DNA from: an uncultured virus (IMG/VR IMGVR_UViG_3300035696_000032)
Taxonomy: Duplodnaviria > Heunggongvirae > Uroviricota > Caudoviricetes
Length of the DNA: 20,000 nucleotides
Reading direction: 5' to 3' (one strand)
IMG/VR virus record: IMGVR_UViG_3300035696_000032
Under the pieces are notes generated by a model that ran no database searches, was not told where the DNA came from, and was given only the letters and a program-made list of their open reading frames with translations. Below, piece after piece: positions 924 through 20,000 of the stretch (the stretch's first letter is position 1; each line of letters begins with the position of its first letter). A program made the position numbers and the translations under genes.

Positions 924-1532
924 TCAGCTCCAGGTGTAGGTGAGGGTCGCCGCGGCGGTTCCGCTCGCGGAGACGGCCTGACCCGTGAAGACGTCGTGGG
1001 TGATGGCGAAGGTCGAGTTGCTCGCCATGCCCGCCGTCGTCGTGATGTAGAGGGCAAGCTCGGTGATGGTGACGGTTCCGGCCGTGGTGTTGTTCCAGGT
1101 CGCGGTGACGGTGAACGTACCGCTCGCGCCGCCCGCGACGATGGCCGTGACGGAGGCGCCGACCGGGTTGGTGGCGCCGCCGGCCGACGTGCCGATGACG
1201 TAGTCGGACCACGTCGCCGCGGTGCCGTTCGTGCCGAACGCGATGGCCGGGGTGCCCGCGAGGACCTGCGCGGTCTGCGCGTGCGACGCCCCGCTCGTGT
1301 CCTTGAAGGACAGCCCGGAGACGTTGAGCTGGCTGACGACAAAGAACTGCGCCGACTGGAGCAGCGTCATGTCGCACTCCTTGTCGAACGTGCTCGTGAC
1401 CTTACCGTCCGCGTCACGGCACACGAGGTTCAGATGGGCACTCACGTTCCCCTTTGCAGCCAGGCTGGGCCCGGGCGAAACAACGGCCCTCTCCCCCGCT
1501 CCCCCGCCGGGCGTATCAACAGCCGACGACAT
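924..1532 (-). CDS. Ala/Thr/Gly-rich beta-strand protein, putative virion (tail/fibre-type) protein
   Basis: ATG 1532 preceded by GGAGGAG. Small-residue-rich beta-strand pattern (FTVTATWNN, VTITELALYI, TLTYTWS). Function is inferred from composition only. Confidence 0.65.
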   Translation of the reverse strand: MSSAVDTPGGGAGERAVVSPGPSLAAKGNVSAHLNLVCRDADGKVTSTFDKECDMTLLQSAQFFVVSQLNVSGLSFKDTSGASHAQTAQVLAGTPAIAFGTNGTAATWSDYVIGTSAGGATNPVGASVTAIVAGGASGTFTVTATWNNTTAGTVTITELALYITTTAGMASNSTFAITHDVFTGQAVSASGTAAATLTYTWS

Positions 1533-1582
1533 CGTCTCCTCCACCCGGTTGACGCTATTTGAGCCCTAGGTCGATGGAGAGG

Positions 1583-1653
1583 TAGGCCCGGGGAGAGTCG
1601 AACCCCCTTCTCCAATTTATCAGAATGGTGTCCTGCCGTTAGACGACGGGCCC
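1583..1653 (-). tRNA. tRNA-Ile (anticodon GAT)
   Basis: Minus strand: GGGCCCG tc GTC taacggcag GAC a CCATT ctGATaa ATTGG agaa GGGGG ttcgact CTCCC CGGGCCT A (followed by CC). One T:T mismatch in the anticodon stem. Confidence 0.85.
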
Positions 1654-1666
1654 GTTGCGATGCGAA

Positions 1667-1740
1667 TGGGCGCGGCGAGAATCGAACTCGCGTCTACGTC
1701 AGCTTATAAGGCTGGAGCAAGACCACTATGCGACGCGCCC
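1667..1740 (-). tRNA. tRNA-Ile (anticodon TAT)
   Basis: Minus strand: GGGCGCG tc GCA tagtggtct TGC t CCAGC ctTATaa GCTGA cgtagac GCGAG ttcgatt CTCGC CGCGCCC A. Perfect acceptor and T stems, C:A at the top of the anticodon stem, 7-nt variable region. Confidence 0.85.
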
Positions 1741-3866: not shown

Positions 3867-4211
3867 ATGCGCGTGCGGCGCGTCGGCCTTCTGAGGAAGC
3901 AGGACCCGGCCCTGCGGAAGCCCTCGCCGGCTTCCCTTCGGACGGACCGCCTCATGGAACGACTCCACGCCGCGAAGGCGAAGGACTTCATCTGGAAGGA
4001 GACGTGGCAGGAGTTCGCGCGGCTCTCGAACAACGAGCCCGACATCTACGGGCGACGCATCTTCACCCCGCTCGCCACCGACAAGGCGGCCTACGTCGCC
4101 AAGGTCTGCCACCGCGCGTACCTCCGCGGCGTGCTTCCGATGGGCCGCTCCTGGTCGTATCTCTCGGGGGCCATCCGTATGATATTTCACGAACTGGAGC
4201 AGAGTCCATGA
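3867..4211 (+). CDS. Hypothetical basic protein
   Basis: Starts at ATG 3867 (or GTG 3861 overlapping the previous stop). ATGA overlap with the next gene. Confidence 0.65.
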   Translation: MRVRRVGLLRKQDPALRKPSPASLRTDRLMERLHAAKAKDFIWKETWQEFARLSNNEPDIYGRRIFTPLATDKAAYVAKVCHRAYLRGVLPMGRSWSYLSGAIRMIFHELEQSP

Positions 4212-4615
4212 AACTCCCTCCCCGCCCCCGCAAGGGAACGAAGTGCCGCAGCCACAAGTGCCGGCGGCCTGCGACGGAGTTCGACTACCTCGGGCACCTC
4301 GTCCGCGGCTACAAGAAGCTCCCGAAGCGCCGGATGATGGCCTGGGAGCGCCTGCCGTACTGCACCGTCCACGGCCTCGCCAACCGGTTCGGCCTTGACG
4401 CCTACAAGTGCCCGAGCCGAGAGTGCCTTCGGAACCGGTTGGTCGCCGCCGGGGGCTGGCTCAACTCGCGGACGCACCCGGAGGACCTCTACGTCTACAT
4501 CCCCGCCGAGGCCACGCTGGTCGAGCCGCCGACGGTCGAGGAAGGTCCGAAGCCCATCCCACCGGCGAAGGTCCACTGCCCCTGGTGCGGCACGCTGATG
4601 CGCGAGGTGCGCTGA
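4208..4615 (+). CDS. Cys-rich Zn-binding protein (135 aa)
   Basis: ATGA overlap at 4208-4211; CRSHKC...CTVH, CPSREC...CPWCG. Confidence 0.75.
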   Translation: MKLPPRPRKGTKCRSHKCRRPATEFDYLGHLVRGYKKLPKRRMMAWERLPYCTVHGLANRFGLDAYKCPSRECLRNRLVAAGGWLNSRTHPEDLYVYIPAEATLVEPPTVEEGPKPIPPAKVHCPWCGTLMREVR

Positions 4616-9131: not shown

Positions 9132-10553
9132 TTACGCACTGAAGGACATGAGGTCGGGCACGTCGGCCGAGCACCGCCTGCGCGCCATCTTCACGTACTC
9201 ATCCTTCAACTCGACCCCGATGGAGCGACGGCCGAGGCCGCGAGCCACGGTCATCGTCGTACCAGAGCCGGCGAATGGGTCGAGTACGATGCAGGGCGTC
9301 GGCTCGGAGGCTTCGCAGGAGCACGTCGGCGACCATCCCTTCGTCTCGCGCTTCGTCGCCGTGGACGTCCCGTAGATGGATGAGAGGGTCCTCGGCTCCC
9401 AGCCCCCGCGACGTCCGCTGTTGTCGAGGTAGGAGTCGTCGACGTCTTCGTACGACTCCATGTACCCCTCGGGCCGTTTGACGTCGACGTCCCGTTCGTA
9501 CGGCGCCCCACACTTGGCGCAGCATCCCTTCTCGCTCGTCCCGAGCAGGATGCACCGCCGAGGAATCTCCTCGGGGAAGGTGGCGAAGTGCGCCTCTTTG
9601 TAGGGCTGGGTCGGGACCTGCCAGACCGTCCGCAAGTTCGCGCCGGACTCCGGCGGGACGTATCGGTCGTTGAACCCGGTGTACGTGTTCTTGCCGAGGG
9701 CGTCCTGCTTCCGTTGCATGTTGGCGATGATGCGGCTCTTGGTCTCGCTCGGGTCCTGGGCCCCCGTCCCCTCGTAGAGTTTGGTCGCCGTGCCGTTGTA
9801 GCCCTGCGCGACTTCCCTCACGGTGGATTGGGCGAGGGCCGTCCGCACGGCGTCCTGGTCGTAGAAATACCTCTCGCTCTTCGTGAGGAGAAAGATGTAC
9901 TCGTGCGCCCGGCTCGGGCGGTCCGTTATCGACTCGGGCATGGGATTGTTCTTCGACCAGACGACGTCCGAGCGCAGCCACCACCCGTCGTCCTGGAGCG
10001 CGAAGGCGACCCGCCACGGGATGCCCACCAGGTCTTTCGGCTTGAGGGTCGCGTGCTTCCTCGGCCGGTCGCCCGGGGAGTAGGCCGCCTTCCCCACGTC
10101 CTTCTGGCCCCCGCCGGTGGCGAAGTACGAGTCGCCCAGGTTCCACCACATCACACCATCGTCACGGAGGACGCGCCGAATCTCTCGGCAGATTTCGACC
10201 GTGTGGGCGACGTATAGCTCGGGAGTCGGTTCGAGGCCGAACTCGCCCCGCCACGCACCGCAGGCGCAGAAGGCGCCGCGCTCGGAACCCCGAGCGTAGT
10301 CCTCGCCGCGATTGTTCTTGTCGGTCGGCGTTCCGGACCCGCCCTTCGCGTCACCGGGAATCGGGTCCAGCCATCGGTGCTGGCACTCCGCGTCCCCGCC
10401 CCACACCTGCGGCTCGGTCCCGTACGCGCGGAGCCCCCAGTACGGCGGGCTCGTCACGACGCACTGAACGGACTTCTCGGGCAGGGAGCGGAGTACGTCG
10501 ATGACGTGCCCACAGAGGATGAGAGGCTTCAGGTCCGCCGGGAGGTCGGTCAC
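9132..10553 (-). CDS. Beta-class amino DNA methyltransferase (N4-cytosine/N6-adenine)
   Basis: Catalytic VVTSPPYW near the N-terminus, NLGDSY, KDLVGIPWRVAFALQ, HFATFPEE, and SAM-binding VLDPFAGSGTT near the C-terminus. GTG 10553 overlaps the primase stop. Confidence 0.93.
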   Translation of the reverse strand: MTDLPADLKPLILCGHVIDVLRSLPEKSVQCVVTSPPYWGLRAYGTEPQVWGGDAECQHRWLDPIPGDAKGGSGTPTDKNNRGEDYARGSERGAFCACGAWRGEFGLEPTPELYVAHTVEICREIRRVLRDDGVMWWNLGDSYFATGGGQKDVGKAAYSPGDRPRKHATLKPKDLVGIPWRVAFALQDDGWWLRSDVVWSKNNPMPESITDRPSRAHEYIFLLTKSERYFYDQDAVRTALAQSTVREVAQGYNGTATKLYEGTGAQDPSETKSRIIANMQRKQDALGKNTYTGFNDRYVPPESGANLRTVWQVPTQPYKEAHFATFPEEIPRRCILLGTSEKGCCAKCGAPYERDVDVKRPEGYMESYEDVDDSYLDNSGRRGGWEPRTLSSIYGTSTATKRETKGWSPTCSCEASEPTPCIVLDPFAGSGTTMTVARGLGRRSIGVELKDEYVKMARRRCSADVPDLMSFSA

Positions 10554-13294
10554 TGAGCCTCGTCCTTTCCGTGCGAATCGTACCACCGACAGGCCGGGCA
10601 GGCGTAGCAGACGTGGTTCTCCAGGGTCGTGCAGAGGGTGCAGTTGGGATGCGTCGGCCGATTGACCGGCGGAGTCTTGACGCCCAATTCATCGCCCGTC
10701 CCGGGGATGCCTCCGACCATGTTCCGGGCAGCCTCCGGAGGGGTCGGGGGTGATGGGGGCGAGGTTGCGGGGGGAGGAGGGGGTTCTGCCTCTCCAAGCC
10801 GCTCCCGGGCCCTATCCGCACGCGTCGTTTGCCCGTCGAAGAGGTCCTCAGGGTCGGCTCGGGGGGGTTCGCGTTCTACGTGTTCTACCTGTTCTACATC
10901 CTTTCCCAGCATTACCCCCCTCTCCACGCGCGTAGGGGTTATCCCGGAAATGGGTGTAGTATCGGTAGAACCCGTAGAACCGGCGAGGCTCGGAGCCGGC
11001 ACGGGCTCGTCCAGCCCCGAAGCCTTCAATCGCACCCCCATCCACACCCGGACGCTCTTTCCGGAGCGTCCTCCGGGCTTGGCGACCGTCGCATGAACGC
11101 CCGGAACAAGGTGGGGTAGTTCGATTCCCACGTCGGTCTGAGACCGTGCCTCTACCCCGTGGTCCTCGCAGAACTCGGCGTACGTCGCATAGAACTCGTT
11201 CTTGGCGACCCACGACCCGCGCTCCCGAATGATGACTTCCTCGGCGAACCACGCCAGGGAGTCCGACAAGCGGCGCCACCGCTGCCGAGTCTCCTCCACG
11301 GAACCGGTGTCGGGGAAGCGCCCCCGCGCGAGGAGCCGGTCGAGTCCGGCCAGCGCCCAGTTGAGGATGCCCGGCGCCTCTTCGAGGAGTTTCGATTCGA
11401 GGAACGGAACCTGACGGTCCTGTGGGATTTGGACGCCGAACTCCAGGGTCACCCACCGGCGGAAGAAGGCATCGTCCCCCCAGGGAACGGCGGGCAGCGC
11501 GTTGGCCGAGAAGATGAGCTTCGCGGGGTTCACGAAGGCGAACGGGGCCTGGAACTTCTTCTCGGCGGGGACGTGGTCCGAACCGCCCGTGAGCATCTTG
11601 AACAGGCCGACGTCTTTGATGAGCCGTGGCGAGAGGTCGGTGTAGATGTTGGCGAGCTTGCTGAAGAGCCCCGCCGAAGCGAACCGGTTGTCGGCCAGCG
11701 ACTGAAGCGCAATCGTGCTCGTGTTCTCGTCGCCGAGGAGACCGCGCAGTACTTCGAGGAGGGTGGACTTCCCCGAGTCGAACTCTCCCATCAGGAAGAA
11801 GGCGACCTTGTACGGATTCCCCGGTCGCAGGCAGTAGCCGAACATCTCCTGAATGACGTCCTGCTTGTCCTGTTGGGGCAGGACCTCCGATAGGAACTTC
11901 AGAAAGTTCGGGCAGGTGGCGTCGGGGTCGTAGTCGACGGGCAGCCGCATCACGAAGTGGTGGTCCGGCGAGTGGTCGACCTTCACCCGCGGTGAGACAT
12001 CGAGGTCGAGGACGCCGTTGTTCAGGCAAAGACGGCCCGGCGGGTTCAGCGAGTCGCGCTCCAAGTAGGTCGAACGCTTGACGGAGTCAACGCTCTCCGC
12101 GACGAACCGCTGCGTCGCGGTCCGGTCCCTCTCGCGGTGCTTCATCTCAATCCACTCGCCCATGAACGCGAGGGCCCCGCCGTTGTAGACACCGTGTCGG
12201 TCGTAGAGGAGAACCTCGCCGGTGTCGCGCAGCGTGATGAAGGAGTACGTCTTCTGGAGCGCCGTCACGAAGGCCAACCGATTCGGCTCCTCGTGTTCCT
12301 TCGCGCCTTCACCGACCACATTCCAGAGCGGCGGGACCTCGGGAGGAATCGGCAGCGCGAGCAGCGCGCGTCGAAGTTCATCCTTCATCGCGTGCGCTTC
12401 TGCTCCCTTGGGCCATGCGCCCTTCTGGTCACGGCCCCAGGAAGCCGCCGGCGACTCCGGCCGCGTCGTCGTGGGAGGGAGTCCCGGAACAGGCGTGGTG
12501 CCTGGTCCCGCCGGCCCCGACGGAGGAGACGGGCTCTCGGGCGCCGGGCGGTAAAACTTCAGCATCGCCGACCGCGCCGCAGGGATGAGTTCCCCCTCGT
12601 GCGTTTCCCAGTCGTCGAGCGACTCGCGCACGATGGCGCGAAGTTGCCGGACCAGGGTTCCCTCGTCGATGCCCGCGATGCGCGAGACGAGCGAGGCCGC
12701 CGTCGAGACGATGAAGTCGTGGTGCCGACCGTGCGGGATGCGACCGTCCTGCCCCATCGGGAACTGCCGGCCCGTCGGGCTCCGCTTCTCTTCGAGGACC
12801 TTGAGGAGCCAGGGCGGAGGAAACGGAAGCCGCGTATCGAAGATGCTCTTCTCCCATGCGTAGCAGTTGCCCGATGGGTGTGGCGAGGGGGCCACGACGA
12901 TGTAACCGCCCTCGGCGCGCAGGTCGAGCCCCGGCCGAAAACCGACCGTGTTGCTGACGAGCCCGCCCGGGTATTGCAAGAGGAAGTGTCGGCCACCGCC
13001 GCCCGTTCGAGCGACCGGACCGTCCGGCAACGGCCCGAACTCCGCCGTCAGCGCCGCGAGTGACTCCGTGCCGCCGTGCCGTGGGTCCTCGTCGACCACG
13101 ATGAAGCCCGTGCTGTCGCCGGTCGGGACGCCGATGGAGGCGTCGGGCCATCGCGTCCACCACTCGCGGACCAGGTCAGTGTCGAGTGTCCGGTCTTTGA
13201 ACCCATGTTCCGTCAGGGGCGACTTGTCGAGCTTGCACGGGAAAACGGGGAACCCGTGGCGCACGTACTCCAGAGCCGCGTCGAGCAGGGTCAT
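10550..13294 (-). CDS. Bifunctional Prim-Pol (AEP) fused to D5/P4-type SF3 helicase
   Basis: GFPVFPC, VVDEDPRHGG, RTGGGGRHF, DLRAEGGYIVVAPSPHPSG; Pro-rich linker; LCLNNGVLDL, YDPDATCPNF, Walker A GEFDSGKST, KMLTGG, KLIFSAN, AFFRRW; wHTH-like region; C-terminal Cys cluster. Start ATG 13294. Confidence 0.93.
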   Translation of the reverse strand: MTLLDAALEYVRHGFPVFPCKLDKSPLTEHGFKDRTLDTDLVREWWTRWPDASIGVPTGDSTGFIVVDEDPRHGGTESLAALTAEFGPLPDGPVARTGGGGRHFLLQYPGGLVSNTVGFRPGLDLRAEGGYIVVAPSPHPSGNCYAWEKSIFDTRLPFPPPWLLKVLEEKRSPTGRQFPMGQDGRIPHGRHHDFIVSTAASLVSRIAGIDEGTLVRQLRAIVRESLDDWETHEGELIPAARSAMLKFYRPAPESPSPPSGPAGPGTTPVPGLPPTTTRPESPAASWGRDQKGAWPKGAEAHAMKDELRRALLALPIPPEVPPLWNVVGEGAKEHEEPNRLAFVTALQKTYSFITLRDTGEVLLYDRHGVYNGGALAFMGEWIEMKHRERDRTATQRFVAESVDSVKRSTYLERDSLNPPGRLCLNNGVLDLDVSPRVKVDHSPDHHFVMRLPVDYDPDATCPNFLKFLSEVLPQQDKQDVIQEMFGYCLRPGNPYKVAFFLMGEFDSGKSTLLEVLRGLLGDENTSTIALQSLADNRFASAGLFSKLANIYTDLSPRLIKDVGLFKMLTGGSDHVPAEKKFQAPFAFVNPAKLIFSANALPAVPWGDDAFFRRWVTLEFGVQIPQDRQVPFLESKLLEEAPGILNWALAGLDRLLARGRFPDTGSVEETRQRWRRLSDSLAWFAEEVIIRERGSWVAKNEFYATYAEFCEDHGVEARSQTDVGIELPHLVPGVHATVAKPGGRSGKSVRVWMGVRLKASGLDEPVPAPSLAGSTGSTDTTPISGITPTRVERGVMLGKDVEQVEHVEREPPRADPEDLFDGQTTRADRARERLGEAEPPPPPATSPPSPPTPPEAARNMVGGIPGTGDELGVKTPPVNRPTHPNCTLCTTLENHVCYACPACRWYDSHGKDEAQ
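10873..10980. repeat. Inverted iteron-like arrays, putative replication origin
   Basis: GTTCTAC at 10873, 10882, 10891 and the reverse complement GTAGAAC at 10965, 10974 (degenerate GTAGTAT at 10956), all with 9-bp period. Palindrome ACGCGCGT near the centre (10926-10933). Confidence 0.6.
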
Positions 13295-13470
13295 ACCTTC
13301 TCGCACGGTAGGCCGACGTGCAGGACCCGCCCGCAGAGCGGGCAGGCTGGAATGATGTTGCCGCAGACGGGGCACGGCGTCTCAGGCCGTGACTCGTCAG
13401 AAATCGGGCTCCCGCAGTCGGGGCATTTGAAAAAAGCGCGGGAGTCTCCCCTCGGAGGCGGGCTCTCCAT
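13291..13470 (-). CDS. Small triple-CPxCG zinc-ribbon protein (59 aa)
   Basis: MESPPPRGDSRAFFKCPDCGSPISDESRPETPCPVCGNIIPACPLCGRVLHVGLPCEKV; ATGA overlap with the primase start. Not in the track. Confidence 0.8.
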   Translation of the reverse strand: MESPPPRGDSRAFFKCPDCGSPISDESRPETPCPVCGNIIPACPLCGRVLHVGLPCEKV

Positions 13471-13835
13471 GCGTCCGCCCTCTCAGAGTTGGATTCGAGG
13501 GCGGTCCGTAAGGGCCAGAGCGATGACCGGGTCAGGCGACTTTTCTTCTTTCGCGCTCGCTGCTAGAAAGAACATGGCGAGGGCCCCAACCGCATCGCGG
13601 TATTTGTATGCTACGCTCCAGTGGCAGCGCAGCCGCTCGTCGATGGGGCGTGGGCACCCACGGGCCATGTTCTCAGCGAGGCCGAGTACTTCCGCGGGCG
13701 CCCGAGACCGATTACTAGGAAAGGGAGTCACGATATAAGGGTTCGCGCCGAAGATTATGTACCCCTACCGTGCCGGAGGCCGTTTCACGACCTCTGGCGG
13801 GTGCTTTATCATCATCAGTAGCCTGTCGGGTTTCG

Positions 13836-13952
13836 ATGAAGAGGCCGAACCGGTGCCAACGGTGCGGTTACGAGTGGGTCCCTCGAAAGAAGGACCCCGT
13901 CGCCTGCCCGCGGTGCCACAGCTTCTACTGGAGGAAGAAGAAAGATGGCTGA
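13836..13952 (+). CDS. Small Zn-ribbon protein (38 aa), CxRCGxxWxPR...CPxCxSxxW type
   Basis: MKRPNRCQRCGYEWVPRKKDPVACPRCHSFYW; TATA-like TTTATCAT about 30 nt upstream; overlaps the Bet start. Confidence 0.8.
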   Translation: MKRPNRCQRCGYEWVPRKKDPVACPRCHSFYWRKKKDG

Positions 13953-14772
13953 GAAGGGAAGCGCGACGAAGGCACAAATCGGCTACCTGAAGGACCTCGG
14001 CGTAGAGGAGACCCCCTCGGGTCTCAGCTTCGAAGAGGCCAGCGCGTGGATTGACGAGGTGAAGGAGTATCGTCGGGTCTCCGAGCGCGGGACAATTCCC
14101 GAGAAGCCCACCCGCACGGACCTCCTCACGGTCCCGCCCGGTCGAGGCAAGCCCGCGGAGTCGGCCCCGGAGCCGGTGGCCGTCGCCAAGCCCGCCGCTG
14201 AGCAGGCCGACTTCAAGACCGCGCTCGATGTGATGGACGAGAAGAAGACGCACGGCCGGCTCACCCTGGAGCAGGTCACCATCCTCAAGTCGCTCGGCCG
14301 ATTCCCACCCGACGCGAGCCCCAACGAGATGGCGTTCGGGATGAACGTCGCCAACCGCCTCGGGCTGAGCCCGCTGAAGAAGCAAATCCGCTTCCTGCGG
14401 TTCAGCCGCAGCGAGCCCATCGAGCCGTTCGTCACCATCGACGGCCTGAGCAGCATCGCCGCCAGGACCGGCAAGTACGCCGGCATGGACCCGGTCGCCG
14501 TCGACGTGGACCCCGAGAACCAGAACATCCCCATCTCGGCGAGCGCCACCGTCTATCGGATGGTCGAGGGCCAGCGGTGCCCCTTCACCTCGACCGTACG
14601 GTGGAAGGAGTTCGCCAAGAAGGACCGAGAGGGGAACCTCACGCGGGCCTGGGCCGAGATGCCGACCTTCATGCTCTCGAAGGTGGCCCGGGCCCAGGCG
14701 TTGCGGATGGCCTTCCCCGAGGAGTTGTCGGGCGTCTACGAGATGGACGAAGCTCCGGTCGAAGAGGGCTGA
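13945..14772 (+). CDS. bet: Phage recombination protein Bet/RecT-family single-strand annealing protein
   Basis: LGLSPLKKQI, VTIDGLSSIAARTGKYAG, ATVYR, PFTSTVRWKEF, WAEMPTFMLSKVARAQALRMAFPEELSGVY. Confidence 0.88.
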   Translation: MAEKGSATKAQIGYLKDLGVEETPSGLSFEEASAWIDEVKEYRRVSERGTIPEKPTRTDLLTVPPGRGKPAESAPEPVAVAKPAAEQADFKTALDVMDEKKTHGRLTLEQVTILKSLGRFPPDASPNEMAFGMNVANRLGLSPLKKQIRFLRFSRSEPIEPFVTIDGLSSIAARTGKYAGMDPVAVDVDPENQNIPISASATVYRMVEGQRCPFTSTVRWKEFAKKDREGNLTRAWAEMPTFMLSKVARAQALRMAFPEELSGVYEMDEAPVEEG

Positions 14773-14816
14773 GGCCCTGCTGGAAGGCCCGTCAGGCCAA
14801 CCCTTTCCCCCTGCGA

Positions 14817-14830
14817 TATTTATTTATCTA
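14817..14830 (+). promoter_or_regulatory. TATA box TATTTATTTATCTA
   Basis: Intergenic AT island matching the recurrent motif. Confidence 0.6.
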
Positions 14831-14882
14831 TGCCCCGCCTTAGGTTGTCTGAGCGCCGAGGGCGCCAGAAGGTAGAATCAGC

Positions 14883-15806
14883 ATGAGCGCAACCGAGAAC
14901 CTGCCGTTCAAGAGTCGGCGAGTCAGCATCAACTCGACCACCATCAAGACCCTCGCCCGCATGGAGAACCCGCGACCGCTGCGCGAGAGCCACGTCCTGC
15001 ATCTCGTCCGGGTCGCCCGCGCGGGCAAGCCCTTCGAGGGCAGCTTCGTCGTCAACGACGTCGGCGGCGGAGGCCGAGAGCGGTTCCGCCTCATCGACGG
15101 GAACCACCGACTGGAGGCCGTGAAGCGCGTCCTCTCTGACGACCCGTCCTTCCGCATGGAGGTGGAGTTCCACATCTACGACCACCTGACCGAGGCCCTG
15201 GAAATCGAACTCTTCGACCGCGTCAACCGAGTCACGAACGTGACCAACCTCGACCGCCTGACGAACCGCCGGGCCCACATCGCCATCATGGAGATGATGG
15301 AGTCCGACTTCCCGTACACCGTGACCTTCCGGCCCGGGCCCATCAAAGAGGGCATGAGCGGGCTCTCGCTCCTGAAGGCGTACGTCGACCGGCACCGACC
15401 CTGGCGGCGCGTCGGCGTGAGCGCGGACGAGCGGCAGAAGTTCTTCGACGCCCTCTCCTCCCTCGGCCCGAAGGACCACGCGGCGCTGAAGGAGTTCGGC
15501 GACGCCTTCCTCACGGGCTTCGGGACGCCGGGGAACCTCAACCCGATGTCGAAGTTCACCGGGCTGGAGGTGGCCGTCAAGACCTACTTCCAGAGCGTGG
15601 ACGGTGGGTTCGTGGACGCCGACGAAATCCCGCGCCGGTGGAAGTCGGCCTTCGACGACCAGGTCCGCATCGCCGTGCAGAACACCTCCATCGGGGCGTT
15701 CAAGTTCGCCCACGGCCTGCTCGTCACCAAGATGAACGAGGGGCACAAGAAGAACCTCGTGCCGACCCTGACCGAGTTCGCCGCGAAGTGGGGAGACGCG
15801 CCGTAA
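14883..15806 (+). CDS. ParB/Srx-like N-terminal domain protein (DGxHR motif)
   Basis: NPRPL...FRLIDGNHRLEA...ELFDRVN pattern typical of ParB-like/DGQHR domains. Confidence 0.7.
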   Translation: MSATENLPFKSRRVSINSTTIKTLARMENPRPLRESHVLHLVRVARAGKPFEGSFVVNDVGGGGRERFRLIDGNHRLEAVKRVLSDDPSFRMEVEFHIYDHLTEALEIELFDRVNRVTNVTNLDRLTNRRAHIAIMEMMESDFPYTVTFRPGPIKEGMSGLSLLKAYVDRHRPWRRVGVSADERQKFFDALSSLGPKDHAALKEFGDAFLTGFGTPGNLNPMSKFTGLEVAVKTYFQSVDGGFVDADEIPRRWKSAFDDQVRIAVQNTSIGAFKFAHGLLVTKMNEGHKKNLVPTLTEFAAKWGDAP

Positions 15807-16252
15807 TGTCGCGCGCCAAGTCCTCGCGCCCGTCGATGACGGACGAGCAGTACGATGCGTGGCGGCTCAAGAGCCGTGCCGAGCGGGAGGCGGTCATCGT
15901 CGAGCGCCTCATGGAGGGGAAGCTCATCCTCGGGCACGTCGATTACAAGTACGACGGCCCAGCCGACTTCCCGATGAACACGCTGTCCGAGTACATCAGC
16001 CGATGGAAGGAGCAGGGGTTCATCACCGGCTTCGTCCCGCGCTTCAGCGGTGCGGGTATCGAGTATTTCCGGGGCCTCCACAACATCCAGAACGCGCTTC
16101 CCCGCGAGCCGATTCCTGAGTTGGTCGCGGCTCCCGGCAAGTGCCCATACTGTGGCAAGCCCGAGCCCCACGAGAAGAAAGTGAAGTGCATCGTGACGGA
16201 GACCATCGAGACGGTGGTCAAGGGCGAAGTCCAAGTACCCCCACCGACGTAG
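15806..16252 (+). CDS. Hypothetical protein with CPYCG...H...C Zn motif (148 aa)
   Basis: TAATG overlap with the previous stop; start reassigned to ATG 15806. Confidence 0.75.
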   Translation: MSRAKSSRPSMTDEQYDAWRLKSRAEREAVIVERLMEGKLILGHVDYKYDGPADFPMNTLSEYISRWKEQGFITGFVPRFSGAGIEYFRGLHNIQNALPREPIPELVAAPGKCPYCGKPEPHEKKVKCIVTETIETVVKGEVQVPPPT

Positions 16253-16259
16253 GGGCGGC

Positions 16260-16658
16260 GTGCACAAGTCCACCTGGAAGAAGGGCGAGCAGGTCCTCGC
16301 CAAGTTCTTCGGCACGACGCGCACCCCGCTCTCGGGCGGCAACTCGAAGCAAACGCGGAGCGACTCGCTCCACAAGCGGCTCTACTTCGAGATGAAGAAA
16401 GGGAAGCACGTCCCCAGGACGCTCGCGTCCATCCTCGAACTCTACCGCACCACCGAGCAGCGCGCGGAGAAGGAGGGCAAGGTTCCCATTCTCGTCATCC
16501 GCCAGGCCGGCACCGCCGCCCCTACGGCACAGTGGCTCGGATGGATTCGCCTCACCTACCTCGGCATCCCGCGCGACATGGTCGTCGCGGTGTCACTGGG
16601 CGACCTCCGCGAGTACTTCGAGTCCAGTCCTGGAGCCGAGGAGCCGACTACTTCGTGA
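16260..16658 (+). CDS. Hjc-like PD-(D/E)xK nuclease, putative Holliday junction resolvase
   Basis: WKKGEQVLAKFFG (E helix), RTPLSGG, SD...YFEMKK catalytic motif, GKVPILVIR. Confidence 0.75.
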   Translation: MHKSTWKKGEQVLAKFFGTTRTPLSGGNSKQTRSDSLHKRLYFEMKKGKHVPRTLASILELYRTTEQRAEKEGKVPILVIRQAGTAAPTAQWLGWIRLTYLGIPRDMVVAVSLGDLREYFESSPGAEEPTTS

Positions 16659-16929
16659 CCTTCCTCTCGATGGCCGCCAAGAGGCGGGCCCAGTCGCGCG
16701 CAAGGACGTCGAACTTCCTCTGGACGGTGGCGAGCTTACTCTTGAAGCGCGCGTCCGCCCCGGCGATTTCGCCCGCCGACTTGACGGCCGGCCAGTCGAT
16801 GTCGCCGTGAGCCACGATGTAAGCCTCATGGCTGAGGTCCCAAGCCAAGTGACTCAGGTCCTTTCCGCGCTGCTGAATGTCGTTCAGGAGCCGCTGGCAC
16901 TCGTCCGGTACGGCCGCCTTCCGCGTCAT
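16648..16929 (-). CDS. Small helical/coiled-coil protein (93 aa)
   Basis: Minus-strand TTTATATA (16954-16961) upstream of ATG 16929; amphipathic helices. Confidence 0.65.
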   Translation of the reverse strand: MTRKAAVPDECQRLLNDIQQRGKDLSHLAWDLSHEAYIVAHGDIDWPAVKSAGEIAGADARFKSKLATVQRKFDVLARDWARLLAAIERKVTK

Positions 16930-17018
16930 CGCCGCCCGGATGGGAGGCCGTCATATATAAACAGCGGCAGGGCATAGCCCTTAAGTGCATGTAATTTAAT
17001 GGCACGGGTAGGTGCAGC

Positions 17019-18095
17019 ATGAGCGCAAGCGCAAAGTATCAAGAGGTAGCAATTAGCCGACTGCGACCGAACCCGTTCAACCCGAGGAAGACCGCCGACC
17101 GTCCCGAGGACCAGCCCGACCAACTGAAAATCAAGGACATGGCCGAGTCCATCCGGAAGGACGGCGTGCTCTCGCCCATCATGGTCCGTCCGAAGGACGG
17201 GAACTACGAGGTGGCCTTCGGCGGTCGGCGCCTGCTCGGCCTGAAGATGGGAAAGGCGTCGAAGGTCGCGGTCATCGTGCGTCCGCTCGACGACCGGGAG
17301 ATGCGCCGGTACTCGATGGTCGAGAACCTCCACCGGTTGGAGATGACGGCGGAGGAGAAGGAAGAGGCCCTCGGGAAGATTTTCGAGCAGGACTACAAGC
17401 ACAGCAAGGTCGGCGCGGGCGCGGGGAACAAGGGCGGCGTCCGGCAGATGGCGAGGGACTTCGGAATCCCGCAGAAGACGCTCGGCGAGTACATCCAGGC
17501 GCACGAGACGCGGGCCGCCGAGAAAATGAGCGCCATCGCTCATTTGTCCCCGAAGGACACGGTCAAGGTCGGCCGCATCCTCAAGGACTCGCCGAAGGCG
17601 GCGCGGGTGCTCGCCAAGGCCCGGAGCAGCGGCGGACTGACCGCGGCCCGGTTGGAGGACGCGGTGACGCTCGTCCAGCGCGCCCCGGCCGAGCACAAGG
17701 AGCAGGTCGCGGAGGGCATCGCTCGGGCCGCCGAGAAGCGAGTGGACGACGAGCGGGCGAGCGACAAGGTCATCGAGGGCGAGATGGAGGACGCGAAGGC
17801 GTTCGTCGACAAGGGCAAGGTGTCGAAGCAAATCTCCTGGGAAATCCGGGGCGACCAGGCCCGGCTGAACCGTGCCACGGCGCTGGCGGAGATGGCGCGC
17901 AAGCTCGACGCGACGTACCTGGAGACCTTCTACGACCCGAAGGCCCGGGCCCAGGCCGTGGACATCCTCTACGAGGCGGGGCAGGCGCTCCTAGCGACCG
18001 CCCGCGCCGGGCGTGACCCCGCGAACGTCAAGCGATGGGGCGAGGACCACAACGAGCGGAAGGCCCTGGCGAGCGGCGCGGGGAGCGGAGCATGA
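17019..18095 (+). CDS. ParB/RepB/Spo0J family protein
   Basis: LRPNPFNPRK, MAESIRKDGVLSPIMVRP, YEVAFGGRR, MVENLHRLEMT, then an HTH-like VRQMARDFGIPQKTLGEYI. Confidence 0.88.
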   Translation: MSASAKYQEVAISRLRPNPFNPRKTADRPEDQPDQLKIKDMAESIRKDGVLSPIMVRPKDGNYEVAFGGRRLLGLKMGKASKVAVIVRPLDDREMRRYSMVENLHRLEMTAEEKEEALGKIFEQDYKHSKVGAGAGNKGGVRQMARDFGIPQKTLGEYIQAHETRAAEKMSAIAHLSPKDTVKVGRILKDSPKAARVLAKARSSGGLTAARLEDAVTLVQRAPAEHKEQVAEGIARAAEKRVDDERASDKVIEGEMEDAKAFVDKGKVSKQISWEIRGDQARLNRATALAEMARKLDATYLETFYDPKARAQAVDILYEAGQALLATARAGRDPANVKRWGEDHNERKALASGAGSGA

Positions 18096-18832
18096 GCGCC
18101 GCCGACATCCCCGCGGACGACGAAATCCGAAAGCAATCGCTGAACACGTACCTCCGAAGGCTCGGCTTCCGGGGACCGAGGCGCGCGAAGCAGAGGAACT
18201 TCTACCGGCAGCTTCGAATACTCGTCTTCGAGCAAGGGAAGAACCCGACGATGTCCGAGGTGATGAGGCTGGCCGGGATGAATCCCGACGGTTTCCGGGA
18301 CCGCGGGACGGCGTACGCGATGAACGGCGAGATTCGACGGTGGATGATAGCGGCCCTCTACTGGTTCCGCGTCCACAACGGCGAGGACCAACTCGACGAA
18401 ATCGACAACCGCACCTCCGCCCCCGTACAGTTCGACATCTTCGTGCAGAACATCGGCGAGAACGGGATACCCGCGGTCGCCGCAGAGGGCAACAGTTTCA
18501 TCGAGGAGCCACGCTACCACAAGCTGAGCCTGTCGGACTACCTGGAACTGCGGCGGAAGAGCCTCAACCGCGTCGTTGCGATAGCCGGTCGAGTCTCCGA
18601 GGAAGACCACATGGTGACGAGGGCCGTCCCTAAAGCCCTGGCCCAACTGCACCCCGTCGCCCTGCACTCAAACGGGAACACGCTTAGTCTGCCCGACCCG
18701 AAGGGCAAGTGGTACGACTGCCCCGTCTGCGGCTACGGAACGGACACCGAGGAACTGACCCGAGAGCACGAGCAGCAGTCTCACACACCGGAGGAGGTGG
18801 CCGCCGCCCGCCGCAAGGAGGGCGGCGACTAG
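18092..18832 (+). CDS. Hypothetical protein with C-terminal C2H2 zinc finger (246 aa)
   Basis: ATGA overlap with ParB; CPVCGYGTDTEELTREHEQQSH. Confidence 0.75.
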   Translation: MSAADIPADDEIRKQSLNTYLRRLGFRGPRRAKQRNFYRQLRILVFEQGKNPTMSEVMRLAGMNPDGFRDRGTAYAMNGEIRRWMIAALYWFRVHNGEDQLDEIDNRTSAPVQFDIFVQNIGENGIPAVAAEGNSFIEEPRYHKLSLSDYLELRRKSLNRVVAIAGRVSEEDHMVTRAVPKALAQLHPVALHSNGNTLSLPDPKGKWYDCPVCGYGTDTEELTREHEQQSHTPEEVAAARRKEGGD

Positions 18833-18842
18833 GAGGTAGTCG

Positions 18843-19004
18843 ATGGCGAAAAGCACAGCGAAGTACATGCTCACCTTCTACCCCGACGCCGAGGCCATGC
18901 GCCAAATCCAGACCCTCGCGGAAAAGGAGGACCGCCCGATGACCAGGGTCGTTCTCACCCTGGTCCGCGAGGCGCTGGACGCACGTCGGGCCAAGAGGCG
19001 GTGA
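18843..19004 (+). CDS. Ribbon-helix-helix (CopG/Arc-like) protein (53 aa)
   Basis: GGAGGT SD; MAKSTAKYMLTFYPDAEAMRQIQTLAEKEDRPMTRVVLTLVREAL. Not in the track. Confidence 0.8.
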   Translation: MAKSTAKYMLTFYPDAEAMRQIQTLAEKEDRPMTRVVLTLVREALDARRAKRR

Positions 19005-19330
19005 GCGCGATGGAGCCGGCCGAGCGTGGCGCAGCGGAGGGCAATCTGTTCTACCAAAAGCTCTGGGAACTGAACGAGACGATGGAGGAAGTCGCTCAGA
19101 GCTTCGTCGACTCCAACCTCGGGGGGGCCAAGGTCGACCGCGAGTTCGCCCCACTTTTGGCGGGCCTGGAGCTGGCGTACGGGAAAATCATCAACCTCGT
19201 AGCCCACAAGAGAAGGCTCCCAGGACTCCCGGGCGTGATGGCGAATCGGGACGTCGGATGGGTGCTGGGCATCGCCGGCGCTAAGGCACCGCCGGAACTC
19301 GGTGGCCCACCGCTGAGTAAGCAGAGCTAG
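19001..19330 (+). CDS. Hypothetical protein (109 aa)
   Basis: GTGA overlap with the RHH stop; last CDS before the ncRNA array. Confidence 0.65.
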   Translation: MSAMEPAERGAAEGNLFYQKLWELNETMEEVAQSFVDSNLGGAKVDREFAPLLAGLELAYGKIINLVAHKRRLPGLPGVMANRDVGWVLGIAGAKAPPELGGPPLSKQS

Positions 19331-19376
19331 GCGACTCGCACCAACCTCTAAGTAGACCAACCCCTTCCTTCTTTTC

Positions 19377-19496
19377 GGACGCGGTATAGAGGACGGGTTC
19401 CTTCTCTGAAAAAGAAAGTAAGCGGGTTCGATTCCCGTCGGCCCTTCGGGGCTGGCTGAGGCAGCACTAAAAAAACCCTCCTCACCTTTCCCGTCC
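19377..19496 (+). ncRNA. Structured ncRNA unit 1: Y RNA-like scaffold with permuted tRNA-like domain (GAA loop)
   Basis: GGACG(C)GG...CCCGTCC closing helix; inner stem GAGGA(C)GGGTT/AACCCTCCTC; TTCT-ctGAAaa-AGAA; T arm GCGGG-TTCGATT-CCCGT; CGGCCC-TTCG-GGGCTG; GCTG-AGG-CAGC. Confidence 0.75.
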
Positions 19497-19534
19497 ACCC
19501 CAAGTCTTAATACTAGTCGGACCATCCATCCTTC

Positions 19535-19670
19535 GGACGCGGTAAAGGGAACGGTTACTTCGCATCATAAGCGCCCGCTCCGGGTTCAACTCCCGGCGCC
19601 GAGACCTCCTCGGTGGGGTCGGTACCCTGGGTTCCCCGAAAGGGGGTCTCCGTCCCCGCCCTTCCCGTCC
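19535..19670 (+). ncRNA. Structured ncRNA unit 2: same scaffold with permuted tRNA-like domain (CAT loop) plus GAAA hairpin
   Basis: CGC-atCATaa-GCG; T arm CCGGG-TTCAACT-CCCGG; 7-bp CGCCGAG-acctc-CTCGGTG; GGGT-cggt-ACCC; CCCC-GAAA-GGGG; preceded by TTAATACTAG at 19507. Confidence 0.75.
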
Positions 19671-19708
19671 ACCTCAAGTTTTAATACTAGTCCGGCAGTC
19701 GCTCCCTC

Positions 19709-19793
19709 GGACGCGGTATAGTCGAGGGGTACTTCTTTCTCCATTCAGGAAAAATGCCCGAAAGGGCAGTCTCCCTCGGCGCTCTTCCCGTCC
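19709..19793 (+). ncRNA. Structured ncRNA unit 3 (85 nt)
   Basis: Same termini; inner stem GTCGAGGG/CCCTCGGC; GTACTTC motif; TGCCC-GAAA-GGGCA hairpin; TTAATACTAG at 19681. Confidence 0.72.
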
Positions 19794-19824
19794 ACCTTAA
19801 GAACGAGCGGGGCCGTCGCCCTGC

Positions 19825-19894
19825 GGACGCGGTACAGGGCTCGGGTACTTCCCCGTAAAGGAGACGCTACCACCCGGGCTCGCTCTTCCCGTCC
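19825..19894 (+). ncRNA. Structured ncRNA unit 4 (70 nt), minimal, GTA anticodon-like loop
   Basis: Same termini; 10-bp inner stem GGGCTCGGGT/ACCCGGGCTC; TTCC-ccGTAaa-GGAG; TTAAGAA at 19797. Confidence 0.7.
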
Positions 19895-19925
19895 ACCTTT
19901 AGTACTAGTGCGCGCTGGAGGGTGT

Positions 19926-20000
19926 GGACGCGGTATAGCACGGGGATACTTCACCAATTCCTGATGATGCCCGAAAGGGCAGTCTCCCTGTGCGCTCTTC
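19926..20000 (+). ncRNA. Structured ncRNA unit 5 (truncated by the window end)
   Basis: GGACGCGGTATAG start; inner stem GCACGGGGA/TCCCTGTGC; TACTTC; TGCCC-GAAA-GGGCA; ends in GCTCTTC like units 3 and 4; TTTAGTACTAG at 19898. Confidence 0.7.

Follow-up and report, generated by a model that had tools for sequence, protein, structure and literature searches.

The window analysed here is the whole 20,000-nucleotide stretch of an uncultured Caudoviricetes virus (IMG/VR IMGVR_UViG_3300035696_000032). Its genes are phage- or plasmid-like, encoding PrimPol/D5 primase-helicase, RecT, ParB, SNF2 helicase, DNA methylases and a DUF5131 protein, and it carries two tRNA-Ile genes. A direct-repeat search together with a reading of positions 19340-20000 revealed at least five tandem RNA genes at the end of the window, with starts at 19377, 19535, 19709, 19825 and 19926. 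The sequence GGACGCGGUA opens all five units and CCCGUCCACC closes units 1-4; the window end cuts unit 5 before its 3' strand, and a complete copy of this unit is present in a related contig (L214:9927-10010, minus strand). The units were scored with two covariance models, R1, built from five published phage YrlA RNAs only (ET08, three CcrColossus RNAs and phage G; source coordinates from Chen 2014 Table S2, PMC4201824), and R2, built from the window-type scaffold.

19347..19354, plus strand: AT-rich box TCTAAGTA, positions -30 to -23 relative to unit 1.
19377..19499, plus strand: unit 1, complete YrlA-like Y RNA gene at array position 1 (fold; R2 67.4 bits; R1 25.5 bits; RNA-library contig).
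19535..19673, plus strand: unit 2, second tRNA-like Y RNA (R2 65.5 bits; R1 9.1 bits, E 0.01 in 701 nt).
19709..19796, plus strand: unit 3, small Y RNA with the common scaffold and a short insert (fold z = -3.98; R2 89.1 bits).
19825..19897, plus strand: unit 4, small Y RNA (fold; R2 78 bits).
19926..20000, plus strand: unit 5, small Y RNA cut at the window end (R2 66.6 bits, 3'-truncated).

The folds of the units share a common frame. A helix termed P1, GGACG(C)GG/CCCGUCC, joins the two ends of each unit through 7 bp with one bulged C. Inside P1 lies an internal loop, UAUAG facing GCUCUU, followed by a second helix, P2, whose sequence differs between units; after the 5' strand of P2 comes the motif (G)UACUUC or UUCCUUC and then a variable insert. 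When 11 distinct units, taken from the window and from two of the related contigs described below, were aligned, 93.7% of the cells were paired, P1 was invariant and both sides changed in 5/9 P2 pairs. The scaffold covariation score was reached by 0/500 shuffles, and in a control where the 3' partners were slid by 1 to 3 columns only 48-65% remained paired. Furthermore, P2 holds G-U pairs, which equal A-C on the opposite strand. The scaffold is a real RNA structure, formed by the plus strand. The three-base tail that follows P1 varies slightly among the 11 units, being mostly ACC, with GCC in one and ACU in two.

A CRISPR-like array, terminators and self-cleaving ribozymes were considered as identities for the repeats and rejected, given unit lengths of 72 to 139 nt, repeats that pair across the inserts and no Rfam fit. 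AT-rich boxes precede the units: in 13/13 units the most AT-rich upstream 8-mer falls between -34 and -22, in a window with a G+C content of 66%. These boxes may have a promoter role. A promoter scan of 19200-20000 returned no sigma-70 sites, and the two terminator-like sites in the same interval both lie on the minus strand and are at chance level.

The segment 19400-19465, to which the original prediction referred, is the insert of unit 1 and is not free-standing. The parts of the unit are as follows.

19377..19384, plus strand: P1 5' strand, GGACG(C)GG, with bulged C19382 (invariant and 100% paired in 11/11 distinct units).
19389..19399, plus strand: P2 5' strand, GAGGA(C)GGGUU, pairing with 19474-19483 (fold).
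19402..19416, plus strand: V stem-loop, UUCU-CUGAAAA-AGAA, with GAA at 19408-19410 (sequence; weak fold, two registers).
19417-19421, plus strand: spacer AGUAA, 5 nt (sequence).
19422..19438, plus strand: T arm, GCGGG-UUCGAUU-CCCGU (pair probabilities 0.91-1.0; R1 aligns its own T arm here).
19439..19454, plus strand: AS, CGGCCC-UUCG-GGGCUG, an acceptor-like 6-bp stem with a UUCG tetraloop (pair probabilities 0.98-1.0).
19455..19465, plus strand: minimised D arm, GCUG-AGG-CAGC, 4 bp with a 3-nt loop (pair probabilities 0.95-0.98).
19474..19483, plus strand: P2 3' strand, AACCCUCCUC (fold and unit alignment).
19490..19499, plus strand: P1 3' strand, CCCGUCC, with an ACC tail (CCCGUCC invariant in 11/11 units).

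RNA folding of 19377-19499 gave a minimum free energy of -48.9 kcal/mol (z = -2.73), equalled by 1/200 shuffles. All the elements that had been proposed for 19400-19465 are present in the sequence where they were placed, and the predicted fold recovers the T arm, the UUCG-capped stem and the mini hairpin, with pair probabilities of 0.91-1.0 across these three arms. The 5' strand of P1 in unit 1 has pair probabilities of 0.92-1.0; by analogy with the Y RNA literature, this strand would be the one that binds Ro60. Both the folds and the covariation in P2 support a pairing of the 5' and 3' ends of unit 1 into the stem-bulge-stem that is expected of a Y RNA. In unit 2 the V loop reads AUCAUAA and the T arm CCGGG-UUCAACU-CCCGG; this unit also has a capped stem, a D-like hairpin GGG-UCGGUA-CCC and one additional hairpin.

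We then looked for related arrays. A metagenome pattern scan for the unit junction matched 101 stretches, of which three (L214, L235 and L245) contain true arrays. L214 is 100% identical to the window over 9490-19499; beyond that point it diverges and lacks window units 2 and 3. L245 and L235 represent a more distant lineage, 82-93% identical to the window in aligned blocks. In L214 and L245 the last unit of the array ends 55-60 nt before an ORF of 523/524 amino acids on the same strand, whose TROVE (E about 3e-28) and Ro60 vWA domains identify it as rsr; both contigs thus have an rsr (TROVE) gene on the same strand within about 4 kb, and the array abuts rsr in all three related contigs. Among solved structures, the Rsr ORF is most closely related to Ro60 from Thermus phage phiLo (9KOP/9L5Y, E 5.7e-34); D. 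radiodurans Rsr and animal Ro60 come next. A contig from DNA run X2 joins window unit 5, via one further unit, to the same rsr leader. Judging from L214 and the X2 contig, the window's own rsr probably lies just past base 20000, outside the window. The array is a Y RNA gene cluster ahead of a phage rsr gene, because the arrays of L214 and L245 end at rsr and the X2 contig links unit 5 to the rsr leader.

Other collections yielded no further arrays of this kind. There was no DNA match to 18800-20000 in the phage collection, and four IMG/VR pattern scans returned no related array, two of them being without any match. Among 119 single IMG/VR matches only one (L056) passed the whole-unit filter, and this proved to be unrelated sequence with no surrounding array; the single match of another IMG/VR scan (L120) lies inside coding sequence. 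Species genomes gave 92 single matches, with no complete unit or clustered array by motif count, and these were taken as chance. The small ORFs neighbouring the array received no function from PHROGs or Pfam.

The two lineages also allow the variability of unit 1 to be judged. Unit 1 keeps the first position in all three arrays, and its insert of ~71 nt shows no substitutions between the window/L214 and L245/L235 lineages. Over 19375-19544 the window and L245 are 90% identical overall, with the differences located in P2, the A-run and the flanks, and the changes in P2 are compensated. An invariant insert amid a changing P2 and changing flanks argues for selection acting on the insert. The insert itself shows no covariation, its three copies being identical.

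At least a third of the sampled words of the stretch is present in each of six peat DNA runs. Both forms of the array occur in DNA runs X2-X4, where a joint of 19499 to 19812 with 14 other letters represents the L214 form and separate contigs cover units 2-4. A soil metatranscriptome run contains one 177-nt contig of the L245 type, which covers 19375-19497, includes 56 upstream nt and ends where unit 1 ends; past unit 1, no contig of RNA run X10 matched the stretch. Production of a stable unit 1 RNA is thereby weakly hinted at, given that the library may include DNA and that contigs cannot show RNA ends.

YrlA RNAs are encoded within 4 kb of rsr on the same strand and carry a 5' GNCGAAN0-1G motif, which is followed by the arms V, T, AS (a loop-closed acceptor-like stem) and D, in that order (Chen 2014, PMC4201824). 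The literature already describes YrlA as a circularly permuted tRNA whose acceptor stem is closed by a loop. Unit 1 resembles the YrlA RNAs of S. Typhimurium, M. smegmatis, ET08, CcrColossus and phage G in lying upstream of rsr on the same strand, in having paired 5' and 3' ends as the (in unit 1 putative) Ro-binding stem, in its arm order V, T, AS, D, and in the UUAC/UUCC-UUC motif that precedes V. The AS of unit 1 occupies the same position as the AS stem-loop of YrlA, between the T and D arms, and at 6 bp it has the length of the AS in Salmonella YrlA. The conserved T stem-loop of YrlA is present in unit 1, one loop base off the published GCGGGTTCGAATCCCGT. Several tandem copies, as in the window array, are also found in CcrColossus, which has three (Table S2).

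Searches with R1 gave a full-length match to 19376-19497 at 25.5 bits (E 4.2e-5 in 116 kb, 2.5e-7 in 701 nt), in which P1, P2, the V hairpin and the T arm are aligned and the D-arm region is deleted. The E-value alone is no proof, because tandem true tRNAs, a false-positive class flagged for YrlA searches (Chen 2014, PMC4201824), also score 25-30 bits with R1, on par with unit 1; the end-to-end alignment and the genomic context are needed as well. R1 finds strong YrlAs (36-63 bits) in the Rsr loci of Streptomyces phage LuckySocke, Gordonia phage Neville and IMG/VR contigs. Common to unit 1 and to the published and newly found YrlAs are a 5' GCG-UAG, (G)UUAC-UUC, the T arm and a 3' UUC-YC before the closing strand. 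No Y RNA was detected by R1 or R2 near the TROVE gene of halovirus HGTV-1, uncultured jumbo phage LR745206 or phage SRB7757. Rfam reported no Y RNA family in eight Rsr loci, and in 19250-20000 no Rfam family reached its gathering score and none was assigned at E up to 10, the best match being tRNA-Sec with 14.7 bits against a threshold of 47.

The original prediction had contrasted unit 1 with YrlA, on the grounds that YrlA replaces the anticodon arm with the Ro-binding stem. This contrast has to be abandoned: the arm order, the arrays ending at rsr in the relatives and the R1 match make unit 1 YrlA-type. The remainder of that description, namely a tRNA mimic of circularly permuted layout with a loop-sealed acceptor stem that is not chargeable as it stands, is borne out. 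The stretch 19377-19499 is very likely a YrlA-type Y RNA gene, with 19400-19465 as its effector module, and the first of at least five tandem genes before rsr.

Unit 1 nevertheless differs from the published YrlAs in several respects. Its P1 helix is clean, with 7 bp and a single bulged C, and ACC comes after it. Neither the 5' motif GNCGAAN0-1G nor CGAA is matched in unit 1, where GACGCGG has the GNCG and CG replaces AA; the motif deviates also in other phage YrlA-like RNAs that we found, which read GAUGCG or GGUGGCG. Unlike YrlA loci, the window array combines units that resemble tRNA with very small ones, all built on the same invariant scaffold.

The main difference concerns the D arm. The D and T loops and stems, together with a UA between AS and D, are highly conserved in YrlA, and the elbow formed by the D and T stem-loops has been proposed as the YrlA effector site (10.1101/312249). 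In unit 1, GCUG-AGG-CAGC follows directly 3' of AS, retaining the outer three pairs of the D stem, with a loop of 3 nt and no UA; the near-invariant D stem-loop of YrlA (GUAGCUCAGU.GGUAGAGC) and the UA linker after AS were not found in this unit. A strict D-arm pattern was present in 11/15 other YrlA-like RNAs and in 0/2 window units, with one further RNA (L315b) having a D arm that is visible by eye and missed by the strict pattern. The shrunken D arm and the missing UA linker are the true departure of unit 1 from YrlA. No YrlA lacking the D loop was described in the bacterial and phage Y RNA literature consulted, although the supplementary figures of Chen 2014 may show such variants. Unit 1 is assigned as a YrlA-type phage Y RNA, its distinguishing elements being a minimised D arm and a putative variant Ro-binding motif.

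A second phage system provides a link to Ro60 itself. R2 matches a Y RNA-like element beside the phiLo Ro60 gene (L325:3992-4054, E 5.7e-4) that carries GGGUACUUC and CUUUCC as the window scaffold does, and a second similar element lies at about 4178-4263. The phiLo Ro60 has been shown experimentally to bind two Y RNA-like elements (PMC12135203), which may differ from the pair seen here. Like the window phage, phiLo combines a phage-borne Ro60 with several Y RNAs, Yrl1 and Yrl2 (PMC12135203). The phiLo elements are unlike unit 1 in having no T arm or other tRNA-like insert, and unlike window-type arrays they sit 3' of the Ro60 gene in reading direction; phiLo Ro60 and the Rsr ORF share only about 28% protein identity (tblastn). 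D. radiodurans Yrn1 is similar to unit 1 in possessing a T arm, only some of the D-loop features and a hairpin that has been compared to an anticodon arm, whereas its arm order relative to the ends is unlike that of YrlA and unit 1, a comparison made from the published description only (Chen 2014, PMC4201824).

These data bear on a different reading of unit 1, that of a tRNA decoy acting independently of Ro60, for example as bait for anticodon nucleases, tRNA-modifying enzymes or tRNA-directed defences, with the scaffold serving stability or processing. Such a role would be in keeping with a T arm and a capped stem that two diverged phage lineages conserve perfectly. It would also be in keeping with the phage tRNA genes in the window, the location of other Rsr loci within phage tRNA clusters, and the RNA-run contig covering unit 1 only. 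Against it, the scaffold is homologous to Y RNAs beside the Ro60 genes of unrelated phages, for one of which, phiLo, Ro60 binding is experimentally established (PMC12135203); moreover, rsr adjoins the array in all three related contigs, and no defence or anti-defence gene was identified near the array. We consider a Ro60-free decoy decidedly unlikely.

We next considered the V hairpin, which the original prediction had taken for a retained anticodon arm. In unit 1 this hairpin is weak: the 7-nt-loop register has an energy of -0.1 kcal/mol and pair probabilities of 0.10-0.14, and an alternative register with a 5-nt loop has -1.4 kcal/mol and probabilities of 0.51-0.81. Hairpins of at least 3 bp with a 7-nt N-U-NNN-R-A loop, ending 3-7 nt before T, were sought within the 30 nt that precede the T stem in 17 YrlA-like RNAs. 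Such anticodon-like V hairpins were found in 10/17 RNAs, or 8/15 outside the window, compared with a mean of 0.2 and a maximum of 3 in shuffles. The triplets in the ten loops all differ (UGA, GUU, CUG, UAU, UCG, AUG, GCU, GAU, GAA and CAU). Because 10 of the 17 RNAs carry the loop and its triplets all differ, the anticodon-type loop frame is a trait of the YrlA family, and the Phe identity is not conserved. A hairpin with an anticodon-like loop is therefore indeed present in unit 1 as had been claimed; it is the V stem-loop of YrlA, weakly folded and with an unconserved triplet, rather than a kept anticodon arm.

The resemblance to tRNA was assessed with ARAGORN. No tRNA was called in unit 1 in its native order. 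A pure re-permutation, with 19449-19467 joined to 19400-19444, was called under two settings only, mitochondrial mode (Phe, gaa) and an 80% threshold, and the lowered-threshold call, though Phe, read aaa as the anticodon. With two or three extra window bases and an artificial ACCA, the re-permuted sequence was called tRNA-Phe(gaa) in standard mode. In standard mode, re-permutation, which had been suggested as a check, hence returns the expected tRNA only when bases are added, the pure permutation being uncalled there. The tRNA resemblance of unit 1 is real but needs an added end which the RNA lacks, and unit 1 lacks the parts expected of a cloverleaf, namely an open acceptor stem of 7 bp, a complete D arm and an anticodon arm that is stable.

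CUGAAAA is the usual anticodon loop of tRNA-Phe(GAA), and permuted tRNA genes in which the 3' half stands ahead of the 5' half, as it does in unit 1, are familiar from the red alga Cyanidioschyzon merolae. Those genes mature to ordinary chargeable tRNAs with free acceptor ends, whereas the acceptor end of unit 1 is predicted to be a tetraloop-capped 6-bp stem within the presumed Ro-binding scaffold. Unit 1 could in principle be a permuted tRNA-Phe gene of this sort, cut in the UUCG-capped stem, trimmed, provided with CCA and possibly ligated at the D/anticodon junction to give a chargeable tRNA-Phe. The standard-mode call of the re-permuted sequence with ACCA and the Phe-type loop both point that way, and there is a precedent in M. 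smegmatis YrlA, which undergoes an RNase P cut and CCA addition in vivo (Chen 2014, PMC4201824). That cleavage is ascribed to the 7-bp stem of M. smegmatis YrlA, with none observed for Salmonella YrlA (Chen 2014, PMC4201824); unit 1 has a 6-bp stem without a leader, and M. smegmatis-like processing of a capped stem of this length is, by analogy, unlikely. Further points against a permuted tRNA-Phe are the failure of the pure permutation in standard mode, the 3-nt D loop, the absence of a U8/N9 linker, the low probabilities of the 7-nt-loop register, the differing triplets of the equivalent hairpins in relatives, and a scaffold that also carries units without any tRNA features. Maturation to a chargeable tRNA-Phe therefore strikes us as extremely improbable. 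Unit 1 is not a decoding tRNA: it has a sealed acceptor end and a stem of 6 bp, and its V-loop triplet is unconserved among relatives.

YrlA has been proposed to stem from a dimeric tRNA transcript (10.1101/312249). The collinear order of hairpin, 5-nt spacer and T arm in unit 1 would fit such an origin, which concerns its history and not its present function. Another reading is that unit 1 is a decaying remnant of tRNA genes, as dimeric tRNA debris with no present function, sharing only ancestry with YrlA. The proposed dimeric-tRNA origin, the degenerate D arm and the scores that tandem tRNAs obtain with the YrlA model are consistent with decay. It is however difficult to reconcile a decaying sequence with an insert of ~71 nt free of substitutions between lineages while its flanks are about 90% identical, with compensated changes in the flanking P2 stem, with a first-unit position kept in all three arrays and with the presence of the sequence in an RNA library. 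We regard a functionless remnant as very unlikely.

Returning to the YrlA-type Y RNA, we propose a model for its action. P1 with its bulged C, the internal loop and P2 would, by analogy with known Y RNAs, constitute the Ro60-binding module. The insert is modelled as a partial tRNA mimic in which the T arm and the capped acceptor-like stem abut end to end and should stack coaxially, as the T and acceptor stems of tRNA do, with the rudimentary D hairpin and the V hairpin placed beside this stack. The RNA may thereby link the Ro60 ring with a tRNA- or RNA-recognising protein of the host, so that host RNA metabolism would be re-aimed during infection. Analogues of such tethering are the Ro60-Y RNA-PNPase complex of D. 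radiodurans (Chen 2014, PMC4201824) and the phiLo Ro60-Yrl-PNPase complex (PMC12135203).

A more speculative extension, which we rate as unlikely and put forward only tentatively, is that unit 1 is a stripped-down YrlA, consisting of a T-arm/acceptor minihelix and a tRNA-Phe-type loop (CUGAAAA, with A36-A37-A38), that serves as Ro60 bait for a host enzyme or nuclease reading anticodon loops or minihelices. The array would then supply interchangeable adaptor cassettes, all on a common Ro60-binding scaffold, gained and lost among co-occurring strains. Each cassette may be driven by a TATA-like box of its own, and such boxes would suggest that the host is an archaeon.

The conservation of Ro60-Y RNA particles extends from bacteria to humans. 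The T arm and capped stem of unit 1 are unchanged in the two lineages sampled and are accompanied by almost no D loop, which suggests that a T-arm/acceptor minihelix may suffice; if so, the search for the YrlA partner would be narrowed. Our data extend the known YrlA family into an uncultured peat phage lineage without overturning current knowledge, and they show that a phage array can be modular, with different Y RNAs built on a single scaffold and with units present or absent among co-occurring strains.

Unit 2 of the tandem Y RNA gene array is a second tRNA-like Y RNA:

Window 19535-19673, unit 2, tRNA-like Y RNA

Its V hairpin reads CGC-AUCAUAA-GCG, its T arm CCGGG-UUCAACU-CCCGG, its capped stem CCGAG-ACCUC-CUCGG and its D-like element GGG-UCGGUA-CCC, and the unit carries an additional GAAA-capped hairpin. 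With a lowered threshold, ARAGORN called a tRNA-Met(cat) in the native 5' part of the unit. Unit 2 is absent from the metagenome contig L214, though this contig is otherwise identical to the window. In L214, as well as in contigs from three peat DNA runs, a unit resembling unit 4 comes next after the end of unit 1, the two being separated by 14 other letters:

Window 19499/19812, L214 10139-10112, array jump

The same three runs also hold other contigs with units 2-4. The array difference between strains looks like whole-unit gain or loss between invariant scaffold repeats.

The most AT-rich 8-mer upstream of each unit was found at -34 to -22 from the first G in all units of the window and of the related arrays on contigs L214 and L245 (13/13), against a background of DNA with 66% G+C. 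Examples are TTTTAATA, CTTAAGAA and CTTTAGTA, and those of the window are placed as follows:

Window 19347-19354, AT-rich box before a unit
Window 19505-19512, AT-rich box before a unit
Window 19679-19686, AT-rich box before a unit
Window 19796-19803, AT-rich box before a unit
Window 19897-19904, AT-rich box before a unit

The Ro60 gene rsr is also preceded by a similar box, TTTTAATACT or, in L245, TTAAATACT. A scan of window 19200-20000 found no sigma-70 promoter; the spacing of the boxes before the units resembles that of an archaeal TATA box. Before several units the linker is complementary to the start of the 5' strand of the same unit's variable stem P2:

Window 19704-19709 with 19723-19728, linker/P2-strand complementarity
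Window 19818-19822 with 19835-19839, linker/P2-strand complementarity

Pairing between the two strands might give an alternative hairpin whose loop holds GGACGCGGUA and which would compete with P1 and P2. It could serve as a switch of processing or folding, or be a chance feature.

Two adjoining tRNA-Ile genes of the window, taken together, score 15.3 bits with R1, the covariance model built from five published phage YrlAs, and illustrate its dimeric-tRNA false-positive class:

Window 1581-1653 and 1667-1740, minus strand, tRNA-Ile genes, anticodons GAU and UAU

The Rsr genes in phages of Streptomyces and Gordonia and in IMG/VR phages (L319, L320, L317 and L318) lie within or adjoining tRNA gene clusters. 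At E up to 0.01, R1 places 2-4 YrlA-like genes upstream in L315, L317 and L318 of IMG/VR as well as in Gordonia phage Neville, where small annotated hypothetical CDSs overlap these stretches. Streptomyces phage LuckySocke has one such gene, which is unannotated. Just downstream of the Ro60 gene of Thermus phage phiLo, on its 3' side, lie two elements resembling Y RNAs, which we take to be probably the published Yrl1 and Yrl2:

L325 (phiLo) 3992-4054, Y RNA-like element
L325 (phiLo) about 4178-4263, Y RNA-like element

Both carry GGGUACUUC and CUUUCC motifs and overlap the annotated CDS phiLo_25 (4023-4259). R2, the model from the window-type scaffold, gave four weak matches (E 0.005-0.34) in Caulobacter phage CcrColossus, adjoining its three published YrlAs:

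L323 (CcrColossus) 201-325, 352-500, 1212-1301 and 1314-1395, minus strand, weak R2 matches

Counted with the published YrlAs, these matches may raise the number of Y RNA-like units in the CcrColossus cluster to as many as seven.
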